Shown here: positions 3 to 52,942 of the stretch, one piece after another
Position numbering within the stretch: the stretch's first letter is position 1
Layout: every line of letters begins with the position of its first letter
Virus record (IMG/VR): IMGVR_UViG_3300029305_004466
Length of the DNA stretch: 64,000 bases
DNA from: a virus
Lineage: Duplodnaviria > Caudoviricetes
Direction: 5' to 3' (one strand)
Notes under the pieces: model-generated
What the model was told of the DNA's origin: nothing
What the model saw: only the letters and a program-made list of their open reading frames with translations
Database searches by the model: none
Translations under genes and position numbers: made by a program

Positions 3-284
3 GGACAGGAAATTTTCTATATAAAAATAAATAAAGTTCTGGGTACTAAAGATTTTTACGCTTTAAAGATAAGAACAATATATCCAAGAATGATAGTAGC
101 TTGTGAAGAAGGTAAAGCTGTACAATGCATTGGGTATGATACTAAGGATAAAATCTTTACAAGTAGGTCTATCGCAAGACAAGAATATAATAAAATTGAA
201 ATCTCGCCTAGATTTACACCAAAGCTTAAATTAGAAGAGGAGGTTGAAGAAGAAAATGAAGAAAGTAAAGATACTGATAGTTGA
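3..284 (+). CDS. Hypothetical protein, 5'-partial
   Basis: Frame of ORF 90..284 is open back to the window edge. Confidence 0.6.
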   Translation, partial: GQEIFYIKINKVLGTKDFYALKIRTIYPRMIVACEEGKAVQCIGYDTKDKIFTSRSIARQEYNKIEISPRFTPKLKLEEEVEEENEESKDTDS

Positions 285-1044
285 TGATAACAACTACAAG
301 TCTAAAAAATTGGAAGAAACTCTTAATGCATTCGAAGAATTCGATGTTTATAATAGAGTTGAGGATGGCGTAACAGCATTAGATAGTATTAAAGCTACCG
401 AACCAGATGTTGTACTGTTAGATTTAATTTTACCAAAGGTGGATGGTTTAGATTTAATAAAAATCGTAAAAGAAGATGATACAATAACCAAAAAGCCTAT
501 TCTTATTGTAGTTACCAATGTTGAAAGACAGGATTTTGTATCTATGGCACTTAATTTTGGTGCTGATTATTATATGATAAATCCGTCTCATTCTACTATA
601 ATTGATAAGATAAGACAGTTAATATCTATCAAAAATATGACATTTAACAGTGCAAATGTTTTAGTGAATCATACTCCGGCTCCAAATAATGATATATATG
701 TAATGGTTACAAGTGTTTTGCGTGAAATAGGTGTTCCTGCTCATCTTAAAGGATACAACTATTTAAGAGATTGCATTGTAGACTTATTAAAAACAAATGA
801 ACAGGTGCATCTGGTTAAACAACTGTATCCTGACATTGCTAAGAAATATAAGGCAAATTTTGCTCAAGTAGAACGTTCTATACGTCATGCAATTGAAGTT
901 ACTTGGAAAAAGGGAGACAATGAAAAGTTAAATGCAATGTTTGGTTTTGTTATAGACCAATATAAGAGTAGACCTACAAACTCCGCATTCATTAAAACTT
1001 TGGTAGACAATATTAGATTACAGAATTTACAGGAGGTATCATGA
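256..1044 (+). CDS. spo0A: Spo0A-like response regulator (receiver + Spo0A C-terminal DNA-binding domain)
   Basis: ILIVDDN and DVVLLDLILP receiver motifs; EIGVPAHLKGYNYLR, LYPDIAKKY, VERSIRHAIE, PTNS motifs of Spo0A_C; ATG at 256 downstream of GAGGAGG. Confidence 0.93.
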   Translation: MKKVKILIVDDNNYKSKKLEETLNAFEEFDVYNRVEDGVTALDSIKATEPDVVLLDLILPKVDGLDLIKIVKEDDTITKKPILIVVTNVERQDFVSMALNFGADYYMINPSHSTIIDKIRQLISIKNMTFNSANVLVNHTPAPNNDIYVMVTSVLREIGVPAHLKGYNYLRDCIVDLLKTNEQVHLVKQLYPDIAKKYKANFAQVERSIRHAIEVTWKKGDNEKLNAMFGFVIDQYKSRPTNSAFIKTLVDNIRLQNLQEVS

Positions 1045-1610
1045 ATACATGGGCTAACGTAGGAGATTTGGTTTTTGTTTTAGGAAGAAATAATGAACCA
1101 GTCCCTTGTAAAGTTATAAATGAGTTGGGTACTGGTAGTAATACTCAGTTATTCTTTGAAATAATCGAAGATGACGATAAAAAGAAAGTGCCTAAAAACA
1201 GACTTAAGGCTTTTATTAATCAGGTTGGTTATGCAGGAGGATTTGTCTTTAAAGAAAAGCAGAATGCTTTAGATTACCTTGATTCTCTTGAAAAGAATAA
1301 TGGTAAATTTAATATGTCTTCTGTACTTACTAATAAGACAAAAAGAATTCAACAGAGAACTGCTCAAAAAACACGTTTTAATCCTGCCAATACCATTGAC
1401 CGAATTAGAGAAGAAGTAGCTCAGAATACGATTAATCAGGTTCAAAAAGTTATGATTTCTGCAATGTTAGTTGCATTGAATACAAAACTGGGTATTGGAC
1501 CGAAACGTGGTGCTGAAATAGTAGATGAGATTAATCGTCTTATCGAAGAAATTCCACGAGATGAACTGGTTAAAATGGCAGAAGAAAAGATGAAAATCAA
1601 AATAGGGTGA
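1041..1610 (+). CDS. Hypothetical protein
   Basis: AGGAGG RBS, ATGA overlap with spo0A. Confidence 0.8.
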   Translation: MNTWANVGDLVFVLGRNNEPVPCKVINELGTGSNTQLFFEIIEDDDKKKVPKNRLKAFINQVGYAGGFVFKEKQNALDYLDSLEKNNGKFNMSSVLTNKTKRIQQRTAQKTRFNPANTIDRIREEVAQNTINQVQKVMISAMLVALNTKLGIGPKRGAEIVDEINRLIEEIPRDELVKMAEEKMKIKIG

Positions 1611-4440: not shown

Positions 4441-6774
4441 ATGGAAAAACTAGTAGTCGCTAAAAGAGATGGAAGAATTGTTGATTTTGACCAATATAAA
4501 ATCAGAGATGCAATTCTTAAAGCTTTTAAGGAGGTTGATAAACAAATAACCTCTGAAACGATACAAAAGGCGAACAACATAGTAAGTAGTGTTGTGAAGC
4601 AGTTGGAAACATATGATAAAGTTTCTGTAGAAGAAATACAGGATAAGGTTGAAATTTCTTTAATGAGAACCAACAGAAAAGATGTAGCTAAAGCTTACAT
4701 TATTTACAGAAACAAAAGAACAGAAGTAAGACAAAGAAATACTAAATTATCTAAAGCAATCTCTGAAAAGATAAAAGCATCTAATGTAGAAAATCAAAAT
4801 GCCAACGTAGATGAAAAATCTTTTGGTGGTAGAATGGGAGCTGTTAATAGCGAAGTACTGAAAGATTATGCACTTAACAACTGTATGTCTATAAAAGCAA
4901 GAACAAATCATTTGAGAAATAGAATTTATACTCATGATTTGGACCACTATGCTGCTGGCGACCATAATTGCTTATCCGTTCCTTTGGATAAAGTATTGAA
5001 AGGTTTTAACACAAGACAGACAGATGTAAGAGGTGCAAATTCCGCTAGTACTGCATGTCAATTGATTGCAGTTGTTTTCCAGCTTCAAAGCTTACAACAG
5101 TTTGGCGGTGTATCAGCAACCCATTTAGACTGGACATTAGTTCCATATGTAAGAAAATCTTTCTTCAAACATTATGTTGTTATGTATTTAAAATCAACAC
5201 CAGACTTCTTGGTTTTAGACCTTATGGGTATGTTATTTGATAATTATGAAGACAAAGTTGGTATTATCAGAAACAGATTCGATGACTGGGTTGAAGAAAA
5301 TAAGCAAAGATTCTTAGACAAGTTTGGCTTAAAAGAAGAAGATTTCTACTTTGGAAATGAAAATCTGGATAGAACATTTTATCAAAGTGCTCTGTACGAT
5401 ACCATTGTTGAAGTTAAACAGGCAGTCGAAGCTATGTATCATAATCTGAATACGCTTCAGTCAAGAAGCGGTAATCAGTTACCGTTTACTTCAATTAACT
5501 ATGGTACTTGTACTAGTCCAGAAGGAAGACTGATAATAAAAGCGTTACTTGACGGTTCTATTAAGGGAACTGGTAAGTTACATAGAACATCAATCTTCCC
5601 TTGTGGTATCTTCCAATGTATGAGAGGCGTTAATCGTAAACCGGGAGACCCAAACTATGACCTGTATAGACTTGCGTTAAGGTCTACAGCTCAGAGATTA
5701 TATCCGAATTACGCTAACGTAGATTGGTCAGGTAATGCGGGTTATGATAGAAATGACCCAAGAACATATTTCAGCACCATGGGCTGCCGTACAGCAAATG
5801 GTTGGGATGTCAATGGTTTAGGACAGTTAAAGGACGGTAGAGGTAATATTTGTCCAGTAACTATTATTATGCCTACATTGGCTATGGAAGCTAAGAACAT
5901 GGAATCTTCAGTAGATGATGAATGGCGTGTTAAGAACTTCTTAGACATCCTGAATGAAGCTATTCATGATGCAAAAGACATTTTAATCGAAAGATTCGAA
6001 TGGATTTGTAGTCAATCCCCAGACTCAGCTAAATTCATGTATGAAAATGGTTTAATGGAAGGTTATATTCCAGAAGAAGGTATTCGTTCAGCTCTTAAGC
6101 ACGGTACGCTTGCAATTGGTCAGTTAGGTTTAGCTGAAACTCTTCAAATCTTAATTGGTTGTAACCATACTACAGCTAAGGGTATGGAAGTGGCAAAACA
6201 GATTGAAAGCTTATTTAAGACAAGATGTGCTGAATTTAAAGAGTTGTATAAATTAAACTTTGGTGTATATTACACTCCAGCAGAAAACTTATGTCATACT
6301 GCTATGAAGAAGTTTAAAGCAGAATATGGAGAAATTCCAAATGTATCTGATAAATCCTTCTTTACTAACTCAATGCATGTACCAGTATGGGAAAAGATGA
6401 CTCCATTCCAAAAGATTGACATTGAATCTCAATTAACTGGATACAGTTCAGCAGGTTGTATCACTTATGTTGAACTTGAATCAAGCATCAAGAACAACAT
6501 TGACGCATTAGAAACTATCGTTAACTATGCTATGGACCATGATATTCCTTATTTTGCTGTTAACGTGCCAAATGATATGTGTACAAATTGTGGATACACT
6601 GATGAAATTGGTGATGAATGTCCTATATGTGGTTGCAAAGAAATAAAAAGATTACGCAGAGTAACTGGTTATCTTACTGGCGACTACGAAGAGGCATTTA
6701 ACGAAGGCAAACAGGATGAGGTAAGACATCGTGTTAAGCATGGCATTGAGATTAATTTTAAGGAGCTTGAATGA
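4441..6774 (+). CDS. nrdD: Anaerobic (class III) ribonucleoside-triphosphate reductase with ATP cone
   Basis: N-terminal ATP cone (VAKRDGRIVDFD), HDLD, TMGCRT, TPAENL, CxxC..CxxC Zn site, RRVTGYL glycyl-radical motif. Confidence 0.97.
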   Translation: MEKLVVAKRDGRIVDFDQYKIRDAILKAFKEVDKQITSETIQKANNIVSSVVKQLETYDKVSVEEIQDKVEISLMRTNRKDVAKAYIIYRNKRTEVRQRNTKLSKAISEKIKASNVENQNANVDEKSFGGRMGAVNSEVLKDYALNNCMSIKARTNHLRNRIYTHDLDHYAAGDHNCLSVPLDKVLKGFNTRQTDVRGANSASTACQLIAVVFQLQSLQQFGGVSATHLDWTLVPYVRKSFFKHYVVMYLKSTPDFLVLDLMGMLFDNYEDKVGIIRNRFDDWVEENKQRFLDKFGLKEEDFYFGNENLDRTFYQSALYDTIVEVKQAVEAMYHNLNTLQSRSGNQLPFTSINYGTCTSPEGRLIIKALLDGSIKGTGKLHRTSIFPCGIFQCMRGVNRKPGDPNYDLYRLALRSTAQRLYPNYANVDWSGNAGYDRNDPRTYFSTMGCRTANGWDVNGLGQLKDGRGNICPVTIIMPTLAMEAKNMESSVDDEWRVKNFLDILNEAIHDAKDILIERFEWICSQSPDSAKFMYENGLMEGYIPEEGIRSALKHGTLAIGQLGLAETLQILIGCNHTTAKGMEVAKQIESLFKTRCAEFKELYKLNFGVYYTPAENLCHTAMKKFKAEYGEIPNVSDKSFFTNSMHVPVWEKMTPFQKIDIESQLTGYSSAGCITYVELESSIKNNIDALETIVNYAMDHDIPYFAVNVPNDMCTNCGYTDEIGDECPICGCKEIKRLRRVTGYLTGDYEEAFNEGKQDEVRHRVKHGIEINFKELE

Positions 6775-21644: not shown

Positions 21645-22448
21645 ATGGGTTTTACAAATAGTCCTTTAGTAACTTATACCAACATTACAAAAAACAAGAC
21701 AAGTCCAAGAAAGCATAAGATTGATACCATTACTATTCATTGTATTGTAGGACAATGGACAGCAAAACAAGGTTGTGATTATTTTGCTACTACCGATAGG
21801 GAATGTTCTGCAAACTATGTTGTAGGTAAAGATGGTTCGATTGGTCTTTGTGTGGAAGAAAAGGATAGGTCTTGGTGTTCTGGTGGACCTAATAAGGTTA
21901 ATGGAATTTCTGGAAGCGAGAATGACCACAGAGCAATAACCATTGAAGTTGCATCTGATAAAACTGCTCCGTATGCGGTAACAGACGAAGCTTATGAAGC
22001 ATTGATTAAGCTTGTTGCTGATATTTGCAAGAGAAACGATATCAAAGAACTAAAATGGCAAGCTGATAAAAACTTAGTTGGGCAAGTAAACAAACAGAAT
22101 ATGACTGTTCATAGATGGTTTGCCAATAAGTCTTGTCCGGGAGATTATCTGTATGAAAGACATGCAGATATAGCTGAAAAAGTTAATGCAATATTAAATC
22201 CACCAAAGAAAAAGACCACCTTATATCGTGTACAAATTGGAGCTTATTCTGTAGAAAAGAACGCTTATGTACAATTAGATAAGGTTAAAAAAGCAGGTTT
22301 TACCGATGCATTCATTGCTCATGTAGGCAAATACCATAAGATACAGGTAGGGGCTTATTCTGTCAAAAAGAATGCTGATGCAATGCTTGCAAAAGTAAAG
22401 GCAAAAGGTTTTGATGCCTTTGTTACAAAAGTTGTTAAGGAGGAATAA
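21645..22448 (+). CDS. N-acetylmuramoyl-L-alanine amidase (Amidase_2) with SPOR repeats; endolysin
   Basis: ITIHC, ITIEVA, HRWFANKSCPG; two YRVQIGAY-type SPOR repeats. Confidence 0.93.
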   Translation: MGFTNSPLVTYTNITKNKTSPRKHKIDTITIHCIVGQWTAKQGCDYFATTDRECSANYVVGKDGSIGLCVEEKDRSWCSGGPNKVNGISGSENDHRAITIEVASDKTAPYAVTDEAYEALIKLVADICKRNDIKELKWQADKNLVGQVNKQNMTVHRWFANKSCPGDYLYERHADIAEKVNAILNPPKKKTTLYRVQIGAYSVEKNAYVQLDKVKKAGFTDAFIAHVGKYHKIQVGAYSVKKNADAMLAKVKAKGFDAFVTKVVKEE

Positions 22449-23529: not shown

Positions 23530-24333
23530 ATGGCAGATTACAAAGAACTGGAATCTCTAAAAGATTTCGAAATATTCGATGGAACATTCGAAAGTATTAA
23601 GAATCATTTATTCATGAGATTATTCAATAAGTATAATTTACCTTTAGGAAAAGAGGTAGACAGTGTTCCTCATTTTCAACATGCAGATATGGTTGCTACT
23701 TTTTCAGTAGAAGTAAAAAAATATTTCACTGGAAGAAAAGGAGTATGCTGTTACATGATTACAAATGAAGATATTGAACAGTTTGGAATCACAAAAGAAG
23801 AACTAAAGAAAATAGCAGTTAAAAACTTACAAGATAAAAATTCAGCAAGAATAGAAACAGTAAACCAACATCTTGTTAGAGCAAATATCCTTAGTCCATT
23901 AGTTAACAAAGAAGAGTTTAATGCAACAGTGCAGTTGGCTGGACCGCCAAAACAAACAGAAATTAATACGGTATTCTCAGGAGAGCAGTTTGGTCCATTA
24001 ACTTTTCAGAAAAACAAAGATGTTATGCTAATTTCTAACAGAACACAAACCTTTGCTTCCATTAACCTTGTTATTCCGGGAGTATTAAGTGAAGTTTATA
24101 ATACATTTGAAGAGAACTTTTATATTGTTCCGTCTTCAGTGCATGAATTGATTTGTGTAAAGTCTAGTTTTATTACAGACGATGGTGAAAGACCAGAAAA
24201 GCAGGCAATCGAAGACTTATCGGATATGTTAGAGCATATAAATGATGTTGTTCAAAAGAACGAAAGAAATATCTTATCCTATGGCATTTATTGTTATGTC
24301 CATGAAGATAATGGTGTAATAAAAGTATCTTGA
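23530..24333 (+). CDS. DUF5688-like hypothetical protein
   Basis: FYIVPSSVHELI motif, A..NL pattern. Confidence 0.7.
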   Translation: MADYKELESLKDFEIFDGTFESIKNHLFMRLFNKYNLPLGKEVDSVPHFQHADMVATFSVEVKKYFTGRKGVCCYMITNEDIEQFGITKEELKKIAVKNLQDKNSARIETVNQHLVRANILSPLVNKEEFNATVQLAGPPKQTEINTVFSGEQFGPLTFQKNKDVMLISNRTQTFASINLVIPGVLSEVYNTFEENFYIVPSSVHELICVKSSFITDDGERPEKQAIEDLSDMLEHINDVVQKNERNILSYGIYCYVHEDNGVIKVS

Positions 24334-47029: not shown

Positions 47030-47863
47030 ATGGAAATAATTACAAATGTTAGTATTGATAACGAAGTATTTGTGGCATGTACAGAAAATAATACAATGTA
47101 CACAACAACTAAAGATATTGCTGAAAAATTTGGTAAACAGCATAAAAATGTACTTCAAGCCGTCAGAGATTTGGTAGCTGGAAATTCAGCCGCCAAAAAT
47201 ATGTTTCATGAAGCCACTTATGAAAACAGAGGTAAGCAATACCCTATGTATCTTGTAAATAGAAATGGTTTTACATTATTAGTTATGGGATTTACAGGTC
47301 AAGATGCTCTTGAGTGGAAAATGAAATATATGAATGCTTTTAACCGTATGGAAGAAATGATTCGTACAAAGTTTACTACATTAGAACGCCAGCAGCAACA
47401 AAATCAAATGCCTCAGCGTGGAAGCAAGGAATTCTTGGCGTTGGCATTAATGGATGCTCAGCAAATTATCGAAGAACAGGAAAGACAGTTAATTGATGCA
47501 CAGCCAGCAATTGTATTCCATCAAGCTGTTGCGGTTACAGAAGATACAATTCTTGTTAGAGATTTTGCTAAATTGGTTACTCAGGCTTTACGCCAAAACG
47601 GTTTCAATGTTACGATTGGTGAAAAGAGATTATTTGAATGGTTTAAAGATAAGGGTTACTTAATTAAGCAAAAGTCTAATTCTTATAATATGCCTACCCA
47701 AAGAAGTGTAGACATGAACCTTTTCAAGATTAAGGAAACAACAATTCAGGGAGACCATGGACCACGTATTAATAAGACTTCCAAGATTACTGGTAAAGGT
47801 CAGGAATATTTCATGGATAAGATATTGGAAATCTATAAAAGTGGTGGCACAATAACTGTATAG
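47030..47863 (+). CDS. Rha-family regulator / antirepressor (Rha + ANT/KilA-C)
   Basis: IAEKFGKQHKNVL, GFTLLVMGFTG; IGEKRLFEW, PTQ, TGKGQ.YF. Confidence 0.9.
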   Translation: MEIITNVSIDNEVFVACTENNTMYTTTKDIAEKFGKQHKNVLQAVRDLVAGNSAAKNMFHEATYENRGKQYPMYLVNRNGFTLLVMGFTGQDALEWKMKYMNAFNRMEEMIRTKFTTLERQQQQNQMPQRGSKEFLALALMDAQQIIEEQERQLIDAQPAIVFHQAVAVTEDTILVRDFAKLVTQALRQNGFNVTIGEKRLFEWFKDKGYLIKQKSNSYNMPTQRSVDMNLFKIKETTIQGDHGPRINKTSKITGKGQEYFMDKILEIYKSGGTITV

Positions 47864-47872
47864 GAGGATGAC

Positions 47873-48559
47873 ATGAGTAAAAGAATTAGAACTTTATATG
47901 ATAGAGAACAGGAAGAAATGCAGCGTGAAGCTTATCAGGCAAAGAAAAAACCTATGTACACCGAAATTAGAAGAGGTGATATTTTCTATTTCGATAAGGG
48001 TCCCGTAACTGGAGTAGAACAACAGGGTGGAAGACCGGGTGTTATCGTATCAAATGACGCTTGTAATAGTAGCAGTGATTTTGTATTAGTATGTTATTTA
48101 ACTACTAAGCCAAAGACATGTTTACCAACTCATGTAGACATAATGTGTGAAGAAAAGTCTATCTGTTTATGTGAGCAGGTACATACTCTTTCTAAAGAAA
48201 AAATGCAAAGATATATTTGTACTGCATCTACTGAAGAAATGAAAGAGATTGATAAAGCTTTAGTTACAGCATTGGATATTGATTTCACAAATATTTTACC
48301 AGAAGATTATATGAATATTGTTTTAAATGCAAAAGATGAGTTAAAAGAAAAAGATGAGCTGATTACAAATCAGGATGAATATATTAAAGAATTACAGCAA
48401 CAGCTTGCAGATTGCAAGAAATTAGCACAGTATGAAGAAGAAGCAAAAGCTGATAATTCTGAATATATAAAAGTATGTGCCGAAAGAGATGTGTATATGA
48501 AGCTGTATAATGACCTGTTACAAAAAGTTATTAAACAGATAAAAACAGCTATTATATAA
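47873..48559 (+). CDS. PemK/MazF-family endoribonuclease with C-terminal coiled coil
   Basis: RRGDIFY, EQQGGRPGVIVSND, LTT, LPTHV, EQVHTLSK, EIDKAL. Confidence 0.88.
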   Translation: MSKRIRTLYDREQEEMQREAYQAKKKPMYTEIRRGDIFYFDKGPVTGVEQQGGRPGVIVSNDACNSSSDFVLVCYLTTKPKTCLPTHVDIMCEEKSICLCEQVHTLSKEKMQRYICTASTEEMKEIDKALVTALDIDFTNILPEDYMNIVLNAKDELKEKDELITNQDEYIKELQQQLADCKKLAQYEEEAKADNSEYIKVCAERDVYMKLYNDLLQKVIKQIKTAII

Positions 48560-51422: not shown

Positions 51423-51806
51423 TTATTCTGGTTTGATTTCTTCTAATTCTGGAGTTTCAAAAGGTTTTAATGGTTCAGCCGCTTCTTCAGCCTGTTTTTT
51501 AGCTAAGATAGTCTTCATTTCCATTAAAGCATCTTCGATAATTTTCTTAAGAGTTTCTTCTCTTATAATCATACTTAAGATAGGATGCTGAGCTTTTATC
51601 GTACTGATAACTTCAGCAAACTTAATCTGTCCTGTTTTGCTACCCCATTCTTCTTCAGCTACAGTCACTAAATAGAGTGCTGCTTCGTAAATACCTTTTT
51701 TACCTTTTGCCACCACATATACTACCACACAAGCAATAATAACTGCCAAGAGGATAACATAAGGGTTTTCAGCTAAACTTTTTACCATGTCGTTAATAAT
51801 AGTCAT
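51423..51806 (-). CDS. Holin-like membrane protein
   Basis: Single N-terminal TM; AEEEWGSKTGQIKF motif typical of LL-H-like holins. Confidence 0.7.
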   Translation of the reverse strand: MTIINDMVKSLAENPYVILLAVIIACVVVYVVAKGKKGIYEAALYLVTVAEEEWGSKTGQIKFAEVISTIKAQHPILSMIIREETLKKIIEDALMEMKTILAKKQAEEAAEPLKPFETPELEEIKPE

Positions 51807-52942
51807 TTCAACTTACCTCCATTTTCTGCTATATATGTTTTAATTTTTTCTATAGCCATCTTTCTATGTTTTACAATAGTAATTCTGTGACAACCATATA
51901 TACTTGCTATTTCAGCATCAGTTTTATGTTGCACAAAAGACATTACTATCAATTCTCTTTCGTATGATGTTAAGCTTTTAAACTCTTCTCCACATGTATT
52001 CCCATTGGTCCAATTAAAGTTTAATGACTCCATTTCATATGGGTCAACGTCTTCTTCTCTAAGAACTAATGAATTACATATTTCTAATTGTTTTTGTCTG
52101 TCTGTTTTTGTTAACATTTTCTCTAAAATCTTATCTGTATCCATGTCTTTTAATATAACTCTCATTCCAACTTTATCTATTGTTGAGAAATTAGCTTCAG
52201 AATTCTTACAAATGCTTGAATGTGTTATTGATTCTGGCTCAAATTCGCTTTCAATACTAAACATTTTAAGATGAGCTAATGGGTCGCCAACAATTTTAGT
52301 TAAAGAGTTATATGCATCGAAATGGAAACACTTATTTACGTACATATGAAATGTACCATTCTCTTTATGGTACACATCTCCTTCTTTAGTTATTTTATAT
52401 TTATTTGCCATATTTAATAATGTGCAGGTTAATTCATTGTATATATCCCAATATTCATATTTAGAAAATAACTTTTGAATTTTAACACATGCATCACTAA
52501 ATAATATTCCCTTTTCATTACTATTCTTTGCTTTTTCTCTATCGCTCTTTGAGATAAATAAACCAATGAATTTAGTTAATGATTTATCGTAAGGTCTTAC
52601 GAATTTACTATTGTATTCTTCAAGTTCTTTCTCTTTGTTATAGTATTCTCCATGATATCCATAACAGATGAAGTCTGTATATTTTTTAATGAATCTATGA
52701 AAAACACTAACTATGTATTGGGCGGCTTCTAAATTACCTGATTTATATAATAACAGGTTATTATTAAGCTCCGCATAATCTTCCTCCGTAAACTTTTTGT
52801 ATTCCGTAGGAAATGCTCTATCAAAATCCGCCTTAGTTTGTTTAGAATAAGAATAGACAGAATCATTAAAAGAAGAATACGAATCTATACTTTCTTCAAA
52901 ATCATCGTCAAATTCCATATCGTCTTCTAAGTACTCTGTCAT
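51803..52942 (-). CDS. Phage sigma-70-family RNA polymerase sigma factor
   Basis: YKSGNLEAAQYIV..FIKKY (region 1.2/2); LTSYERELIVMSF..KTDAEIA (region 4 HTH). Confidence 0.8.
   Translation of the reverse strand: MTEYLEDDMEFDDDFEESIDSYSSFNDSVYSYSKQTKADFDRAFPTEYKKFTEEDYAELNNNLLLYKSGNLEAAQYIVSVFHRFIKKYTDFICYGYHGEYYNKEKELEEYNSKFVRPYDKSLTKFIGLFISKSDREKAKNSNEKGILFSDACVKIQKLFSKYEYWDIYNELTCTLLNMANKYKITKEGDVYHKENGTFHMYVNKCFHFDAYNSLTKIVGDPLAHLKMFSIESEFEPESITHSSICKNSEANFSTIDKVGMRVILKDMDTDKILEKMLTKTDRQKQLEICNSLVLREEDVDPYEMESLNFNWTNGNTCGEEFKSLTSYERELIVMSFVQHKTDAEIASIYGCHRITIVKHRKMAIEKIKTYIAENGGKLK

Follow-up and report, generated by a model that had tools for sequence, protein, structure and literature searches.

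Why would a phage keep the signal-receiving half of Spo0A, the regulator that decides sporulation in Firmicutes, when the switch residue of that half has been replaced? The question is raised by a 64,000-nucleotide (nt) stretch of the IMG/VR virus record IMGVR_UViG_3300029305_004466 (hereafter the window), which carries close to its first letter a spo0A-like gene for a protein of 262 amino acids (aa), here called P0001. Through sporulation, Spo0A bears on the persistence and transmission of gut Clostridia and on their escape from phages. The spo0A homologues described from phages of the human gut are truncated to the effector domain and are presumed to act without host signals (Schwartz et al. 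2023, PMC10294663), as a preliminary description of this locus had noted, and the lack of a receiver in these published genes suggests simple constitutive DNA binders. P0001 shares with them a phage-borne Spo0A effector domain but keeps an altered receiver under purifying selection, and it comes from a jumbo phage in which its gene lies in the early/replication region. We found no description of a full-length phage Spo0A in the literature. By keeping the receiver without its switch Lys and with the docking face replaced, this phage lineage provides a natural experiment on receiver-effector coupling and on insulation from host signalling. Our preferred reading, to which we give a probability of roughly 50%, is that P0001 is a DNA-binding Spo0A mimic whose conserved pseudo-receiver is insulated from host kinases and phosphatases.

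A full-length phage Spo0A with asparagine at the switch position

P0001 is a full-length Spo0A by both profile and fold, which bears out the preliminary description. Pfam places Response_reg (PF00072) at residues 6-111 (5.6e-16) and Spo0A_C (PF08769) at residues 151-253 (6e-34), and the protein passes the NCBIfam equivalog model TIGR02875 (spore_0_A) with 218.3 bits against a cutoff of 200, over residues 2-257 of 262. The best HMMER matches among solved structures are the Spo0A effectors 1FC3 and 1LQ1 (E ~1e-30), followed by Spo0A receivers. An AlphaFold2 (AF2) model built on a 148-sequence alignment has a mean predicted local distance difference test score (pLDDT) of 85.6 and comprises a confident (beta-alpha)5 receiver, with strands at residues 4-9, 29-35, 52-55, 82-87 and 105-108 and helices at 13-24, 38-48, 64-73, 92-101 and 112-127, and a helical effector. 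Foldseek matched the receiver to 5WQ0 and 1QMP with a template modelling (TM) score of 0.91 and the effector to 1FC3 and 1LQ1 with a TM score of 0.87 and 44% identity. Like canonical bacterial Spo0A (TIGR02875; 1QMP, 5WQ0; 1FC3, 1LQ1), P0001 has two domains and the usual length, and it keeps D10, D11, D56, T87, Y106, E206, R207, R210, H211, G220 and F229. Database gene calls agree on ATG 256 as the start.

All of the receiver motifs quoted in the preliminary description are present, namely IVDDN (D10, D11), LLDLILP (D56), VVTN (T87) and DYYMINP (N109, P110). The active-site quintet (DD, D, T/S, K) is incomplete, with D10, D11, D56 and T87 in place and N109 instead of K. The assignment of N109 to the conserved Lys position follows from the HMMER alignment with the Bacillus subtilis Spo0A receiver (PDB 9phz), in which 'ASYFILKP' lies opposite 'ADYYMINP'. 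Searches of 5.8 billion proteins and 1.8 billion representatives extended the clade of P0001 by four sequences only. P0002 (64% identical; contigs up to 211 kb) and P0003 (61%; a 195-kb contig) represent two more 90%-identity clusters, and P0269 and P0270 are additional members, one in each of the first two clusters, giving a clade of five distinct sequences. Scans of IMG/VR with the protein, with the alignment and with a back-translation of DYYMINP (4 matches, all unrelated) found no further members. We aligned 248 full-length family members from both large searches, including 50%-identity representatives, of which 245 lie outside the clade; at the Lys column these 245 read K 233 times, R 9 times, H, E and T once each, and never N. 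DYYMINP with Asn109 is found in all five clade sequences; of the four genes examined, three use AAT for the Asn and the fourth, that of P0003, uses AAC. The alignment proposed as a check in the preliminary description thus establishes the K-to-N change as a conserved feature of the lineage.

It is very improbable that the gene as read is an artefact of contaminating bacterial DNA, of a chimeric assembly or of a misread Lys codon. The public collection has a protein identical to P0001 in 35 blocks, and in 13 of these the longest contig exceeds 200 kb; Asn109 is therefore neither an error nor a one-off; the five sequences and two codons rule out both as well. Contamination of the window with bacterial DNA is excluded by its phage gene content and by a synteny common to four phage genomes. 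The concern has a real basis, as full-length spo0A genes in 'Bacteriophage sp.' GenBank records can be bacterial. The best full-length 'phage' match in GenBank, MT835504.1 ('UNVERIFIED: Bacteriophage sp.'; our locus L012), is a bacterial chromosomal fragment with genes for FtsJ/TlyA, NAD kinase (NadK), ArgR, RecN, SpoIVB, Spo0A and starch synthase, so a full-length spo0A match in that virome set cannot be assumed to be a phage gene.

After the clade itself, the best Spo0A homologues come from bacteria, with identities no higher than 41%; those that are named belong to Lachnospiraceae and other Clostridia. In a maximum-likelihood tree the clade occupies its own long branch, with a Shimodaira-Hasegawa-like approximate likelihood ratio test (SH-aLRT) support of 97, a position that also speaks against an artefact. 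No bacterial sister was found in this tree, the sole attaching sequence (P0232) being itself long-branched and of aberrant composition. Because the clade stands alone on its branch, the tree points to no donor lineage and to a single origin of the Lys-to-Asn change.

The receiver active site is otherwise largely intact. D10, D56, T87, Y106 and P110 never vary within the clade. D11 is present in four of the five sequences; P0003 has Ser there and so lacks one of the two acidic residues that bind the metal. KPFD is broken: its Phe is missing or replaced, and the motif reads NP-S/D. With a PF00072 match, Asn in place of the Lys and the Asp retained, P0001 falls among the pseudo-receivers as defined in a review, in which pseudo-receivers and atypical receivers make up ~6% of bacterial receivers (PMC12632262). 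It is not an aspartate-less receiver (ALR), given the invariant D56, and it differs further from the atypical regulators of that review in having Spo0A_C as its output and in being phage-encoded; the word 'phage' is absent from the review's main text. Judged from sequence, degenerate Spo0A receivers are also found in other lineages: P0126, P0144 and P0172 form a small, well-supported Spo0A-like clade with Arg or His for the switch Lys and no Pro next to it. On the one contig seen for that clade (L006, 1.2 kb), the gene is preceded at ~90 bp by a TGTCGAA box.

A conserved receiver with an altered surface

Asn109 is not the only change that sets this receiver apart. Defining clade-specific residues as those invariant in the clade and present in <5% of the other 245 sequences, we find K15, K18, S44, E90, R91, Q92, F94 and N109 in the receiver. 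Column 15 is Lys in all five clade sequences; elsewhere it is hydrophobic in 223 of 245, K or R in one of 245, and never Lys. Column 18, likewise an invariant Lys in the clade, is elsewhere hydrophobic in 158 of 245 sequences and Lys in 3%. The family frequencies of E90, R91, Q92 and F94 are 1%, 4%, 2% and 4.5%, respectively, and R91 corresponds to B. subtilis Q90. The AF2 model puts K15 and K18 on alpha1, residues 90-94 on the beta4-alpha4 loop and the first part of alpha4, and N109 at the opening of the beta5-alpha5 loop, so that all of the clade-specific receiver residues but S44 are predicted to ring the phospho-site D56. Compared with canonical Spo0A, which is at most 41% identical and separated from it by the long branch described above, the phage protein thus differs in its switch residue (Lys to Asn), in KPFD (to NP-S/D), in alpha1 (Lys at 15 and 18) and in the beta4-alpha4 loop (ERQ).

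Positions 15 and 18 of receiver alpha1 are packed onto the helical bundle of a kinase or of Spo0B, as in the Spo0F-Spo0B and HK853-RR468 complexes. In Clostridioides difficile Spo0A, alpha1, beta4-alpha4 and beta5-alpha5 are the faces that contact regulators, and mutations there change sporulation (10.1101/2022.02.07.479450). The same preprint reports a severe sporulation defect for C. difficile K108A, at the position of N109; in its split-luciferase dimerisation assay the K108A signal was below wild type but not significantly so, only D10A and D56A being significantly lower. It also describes B. subtilis Q90R as a gain-of-function change favouring direct phosphorylation by KinC, and notes that in Clostridia orphan kinases act directly, in place of a route through Spo0F and Spo0B (10.1101/2022.02.07.479450). 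The phage clade carries naturally, at the positions of the laboratory mutations K108A, Q90R, A257V and H162R, the residues N109, R91, V250 and R156. These changes are natural, fixed and combined, and whereas K108A alone is a loss-of-function mutation in C. difficile, the phage protein is maintained by selection.

This selection is seen in non-synonymous (dN) and synonymous (dS) divergence, estimated by the Nei-Gojobori method between four phage genes. Within the clade the spo0A dS is ~0.9-1.4, and dN/dS is 0.08-0.26 for the receiver and 0.09-0.31 for the effector, compared with 0.06-0.10 for the upstream 192-aa gene and 0.09-0.20 for the downstream 189-aa gene. The dS of the upstream gene is comparable to that of spo0A, and that of the downstream gene is lower in comparisons with this phage. 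The non-synonymous rate of spo0A is ~2.5 times that of its neighbours, with both halves still constrained. The receiver is thus kept by purifying selection and is not decaying.

The preliminary description had suggested a phosphorylation-uncoupled, phosphate-sink or dominant-negative regulator. The first of these suggestions gains strength from the sequence comparison, since Lys at 15 and 18, the rebuilt beta4-alpha4 loop, the lost KPFD Phe and the D11S of P0003 all point to a receiver that may no longer be coupled to phosphorylation. A sink or decoy would drain phosphate from host kinases, form dead heterodimers or occupy 0A boxes idly, blocking sporulation and keeping the host productive for lytic growth. 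The retention of the acceptor Asp alongside loss of the switch Lys fits such a role, as do the severe sporulation defect and the lower, statistically non-significant, dimerisation signal of C. difficile K108A. There is also precedent for sporulation blocks imposed by phages, in that expression of phage sigF/sigG homologues cut spore yield, according to work cited in PMC10294663. However, a sink must dock efficiently on host phosphodonors, and the donor-docking face appears to have been replaced, which weakens the phosphate-sink proposal in particular. On this evidence, and on that of the effector described below, we regard a sink or decoy as unlikely.

Somewhat better placed, though still doubtful beside the mimic, is a sensor that can still be phosphorylated. 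The phosphate on D56 would be supplied by acetyl phosphate, by a particular orphan kinase of the host or by a donor that the phage encodes out of sight. Partner specificity and kinetics would be retuned by N109 and the altered faces, with signalling itself preserved, and the phage would read the host's commitment to sporulation and adjust host or phage transcription. The conservation of D10, D56, T87, Y106 and P110, and of D11 in four of five, across a dS of ~0.9-1.4 is what this would predict. Substitutions at the K position need not abolish phosphotransfer, according to PMC12632262, which cites Lukat 1991; R91 is equivalent to the KinC-facilitating Q90R; and the direct orphan kinases of Clostridia may follow docking rules different from those of Spo0F and Spo0B. 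Against a sensor stand Lys15 in a column that is hydrophobic in nearly all of the family, the severe defect of K108A, the D11S of P0003 and the loss of KPFD. Nor did the larger open reading frames (ORFs) of the window, or the 5 kb before it, yield a kinase or a histidine phosphotransfer (Hpt) domain, and no kinase gene was seen in the ~74 kb inspected of a genome of ~210 kb.

A further tentative proposal, a little less probable than the sensor, is that the pseudo-receiver has become a new input module, its KxKK / ERQD / NP surface answering to a phage-encoded or non-phosphoryl cue by which the phage times the host Spo0A regulon. If so, infected cells could be driven to sporulate, carrying the phage genome between animals in oxygen-resistant spores, or sporulation could be locked off during lytic growth. 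A small set of residues lends itself to testing: N109, K15, K18, E90-Q92 and the V250/R156 pair.

Effector domain, 0A boxes and the case for insulation

The effector half, by contrast, looks functional. Conservation in the family reaches at least 80% in 54 effector columns, and all clade members keep 38 of these, among them E206, R207, R210 and H211 of the recognition helix. The helix motif quoted in the preliminary description, AQVERSIRHAIE, is present with E206, R207 and R210 retained; these three columns are 99-100% conserved in the family, and from the 1LQ1 literature we take the residues (B. subtilis E213, R214 and R217) to be base-contacting. The N-terminus of the helix reads A200, N201, F202, A203, Q204 in this phage alone, where the family has T, T, P, S, R; the sister phages keep T...R. 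Effector positions were mapped by adding 147 to the chain index to obtain the 1LQ1 numbering, which pairs G220, K224, N226, F229 and I233 of the phage with B. subtilis G227, S231, S233, F236 and V240. Recovery of these classical sigma-A-contact positions validates the mapping. Four further proteins met in the family searches (P0121, P0123, P0124 and P0125; 394-454 aa) have three or four tandem Spo0A_C domains and no receiver according to Pfam, an architecture of which we know no description.

Two substitutions in the effector recall classical suppressor genetics. K247 replaces a 93%-conserved Ala next to V250, and V250 itself stands at the position of A257V (spo0A9V), a mutation that abolishes activation of spoIIA and spoIIG while leaving abrB repression intact and that is suppressed by H162R and L174F (PMC9195935). 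V250 could therefore be enlisted for a decoy that still represses abrB but does not activate the spoII genes. However, the clade carries R156, the equivalent of the H162R suppressor, together with V250, and the two positions co-vary across the family: His occurs at 156 in only one of 12 sequences with Val or Ile at 250, compared with ~74% overall. For these reasons any activation defect has probably been compensated, and a 'repressor-only Spo0A' was down-weighted. The sigma-contact residues G220, F229 and I/V233 are also kept in the clade, which again argues against a decoy. From the alignment columns, the V250/R156 pair is probably a natural compensated state rather than evidence for a protein that only represses, and it independently recapitulates the A257V/H162R suppressor genetics as natural covariation.

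If the effector still reads 0A boxes, its targets seem more likely to lie in the host than in the phage. Neither the window nor the related phage loci (L001-L005 and L011) contain the canonical box TGTCGAA; in the window, 5.2 sites would be expected from dinucleotide shuffles and 2-2.8 from order-3 or order-4 Markov models. This depletion is only suggestive, because the Markov expectation is the lower one and GTCGA is itself under-represented (8 vs 16), as is GTCGAA. The relaxed box TGNCGAA occurs 22 times against 15.9 expected, which is not significant, and none of the 22 sites is intergenic. The bacterial spo0A of L012, by comparison, has TGTCGAA twice immediately upstream, at 5810 and 5895; the phage-encoded gene, unlike it, has no autoregulatory 0A boxes and no spoIVB neighbour, and no TGTCGAA is present in the window or in the upstream locus of the same phage (L003). 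With no canonical box and no intergenic relaxed box, nothing points to control of phage promoters in the portion of the genome covered, and host 0A boxes are the likelier targets. The absence of TGTCGAA could reflect avoidance of host Spo0A binding or be a by-product of restriction-site avoidance. Several short palindromes are very strongly avoided in the window, with GATC at 0 (~360-400 expected), GCGC at 0 (48-75), CGCG at 0 (25-39), GGCC at 4 (77-113) and CTAG at 88 (200-390), a pattern that looks like phage avoidance of restriction sites.

These counts bear directly on another possibility, which we consider improbable: that the phage now uses its captured Spo0A as a middle or late transcription factor for its own genes, with little role in host sporulation. 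Its gene forms an operon with strongly conserved phage genes, its dN exceeds that of the neighbours ~2.5-fold at similar dS, as expected after a change of function, and the N-terminus of its recognition helix has diverged in this phage. The lack of TGTCGAA in the window and related loci, the unremarkable number of TGNCGAA sites with none between genes, and the unchanged base-contacting residues, which give no indication of a new specificity, all tell against such a regulator.

We return to the reading of P0001 as an insulated mimic. A phage lineage of ~195-211 kb would have captured a spo0A gene long ago. Its effector half would still be a working Spo0A DNA-binding and trans-activation domain that recognises host 0A boxes, and its receiver half would have become a pseudo-receiver, with Asn as the switch residue and KPFD broken. 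The surfaces on which kinases, phosphotransferases and Spo0E-type phosphatases dock would have been swapped for a conserved charged surface (alpha1 15/18 and the beta4-alpha4 loop). We infer that the protein would in this way be insulated from the host sporulation phosphorylation network, and that the canonical Asp~P to Thr/Lys switch would not operate in it. The receiver might then be a module for dimerisation or regulation, either constitutive or under some other control, and the phage would impose its own setting on the host Spo0A regulon during infection.

Several points weigh against this reading. The retained pocket residues listed above mean that the pocket could still bind Mg2+ and a phosphoryl group, and PMC12632262, cited above, indicates that a change at the K position need not stop phosphorylation. 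As R91 is Q90R-like, the new surface could fit a particular kinase rather than none, and with ~74 of ~210 kb inspected, a kinase or partner could be encoded elsewhere in the genome. The divergence at A200-Q204 may alter backbone contacts. Finally, the host can be placed only approximately: the Spo0A homologues and the relatives of a chemoreceptor encoded nearby suggest Clostridia of Lachnospiraceae type that are probably motile, anaerobic and able to form spores.

Phage lineage and gene neighbourhood

The window has a GC content of 31-36% and encodes a PolC/DnaE-like polymerase, NrdD and NrdG, dUTPase, thymidylate synthase, several helicases, primases, a UvsX-like recombinase, a sliding-clamp-like protein, lysins and a virion structural protein. 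A megablast search with 20 kb found no close cultured phage among 50,697 phage records, and the polymerase is at most 33% identical to anything in them. Features of the spo0A locus are given in Table 1.

Table 1. Positions in the window of the phage spo0A-like gene, its domains and key residues, and the flanking genes
Feature	Coordinates	Strand	Basis or remark
spo0A-like gene, 262 aa (P0001)	256..1044, stop codon included	+	ORF list and translation, Pfam, TIGR02875, AF2, fold matches
Shine-Dalgarno-like GAGGAGG, 12 nt 5' of ATG 256	237..243	+	Sequence reading
Pseudo-receiver domain, residues 1-127, beta1-alpha5	256..636	+	AF2 secondary structure, pLDDT >90
Acidic pair D10-D11	283..288	+	Clade alignment; D11 is Ser in sister phage P0003
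Helix alpha1 K15-S16-K17-K18	298..309	+	K15 and K18 in place of the family's hydrophobic residues
Phospho-acceptor Asp56, codon GAT, kept	421..423	+	D56 invariant in clade
T87 and remodelled beta4-alpha4 segment N88-V89-E90-R91-Q92-D93-F94	514..537	+	Family column counts
Asn109, codon AAT, at switch Lys position (B. subtilis/C. difficile K108, CheY K109)	580..582	+	Alignments
Inter-domain linker, residues 128-146, predicted disordered	637..693	+	pLDDT <50 for 129-142
Spo0A_C effector (DNA-binding, trans-activation) domain, residues 147-258	694..1029	+	phmmer to 1FC3/1LQ1, 1e-30; Foldseek
R156, B. subtilis H162 position	721..723	+	Position mapping, column counts, covariation
Recognition helix, residues 202-219; E206, R207, R210 correspond to B. 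subtilis E213, R214, R217	859..912	+	1LQ1 alignment
V250, B. subtilis A257 (spo0A9V position)	1003..1005	+	Position mapping, column counts
Upstream 192-aa gene, unknown function, 3' part	3..284	+	Overlaps spo0A start by 29 nt; syntenic in four phages
Downstream 189-aa gene, unknown function	1041..1610	+	Start overlaps spo0A stop (ATGA)

The neighbourhood was compared on four syntenic phage contigs of 195-211 kb, all of which share the gene order 192-aa gene, spo0A, 186-190-aa gene, several small genes, dUTPase, NrdD and NrdG, continuing with an NlpC/P60-LysM protein, a single-stranded DNA-binding protein (SSB) and an SNF2 helicase. spo0A therefore sits, in an operon-like arrangement, where an early region of small genes meets the replication and nucleotide-metabolism module. 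The upstream gene is 83-84% identical to its counterparts in the other three phages. The downstream gene, which is translationally coupled to spo0A and belongs to an ESM Atlas cluster of 61 mostly viral members, is 83-94% identical among the four and far better conserved than spo0A; it has no Pfam or PHROG match. A neighbour was considered as a partner of Spo0A and rejected: the neighbours are 83-94% identical between phages while the Spo0A proteins are 61-64% identical, and they thus show no sign of covariation.

The chemoreceptor gene lies in L003 (6995-8662), ~1.3 kb upstream of the window start. It encodes a full-length, 555-aa methyl-accepting chemotaxis protein (MCP; sCache_3_3 plus MCPsignal), shares an operon-like block with spo0A and is missing at that position in the sister phage L001. 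Its closest relatives are 50-57% identical, the named ones being from Lachnospiraceae and Clostridium. Upstream of the MCP/spo0A block, L003:6073-6173 contains a perfect extended -10 sigma-70 promoter (TTGACA-17-TATAAT, with TG), with a terminator-like hairpin with a 13-bp stem at most 45 bp past it.

Several other genes of the window deserve mention. On the minus strand, at 51803-52942, a 379-aa protein shows nothing recognisable beyond a weak sigma-70 region 4 and could be a divergent phage sigma factor; its best NCBIfam hints are SigB/F/G and SigF models, far below cutoffs. At 21645-22448 an Amidase_2 domain is fused to a SPOR domain, resembling sporulation and division amidases; SPOR domains target septal or denuded peptidoglycan. 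A DUF5688 protein is encoded at 23530-24333, and another DUF5688 gene lies two genes downstream of the bacterial spo0A in MT835504.1 (L012:8609-9580); the shared gene may be a coincidence or a link with the spo0A neighbourhood. In the replication region, at 47030-48559, a PemK/MazF-like toxin gene comes immediately after a Rha/ANT (KilAC) antirepressor-like gene.

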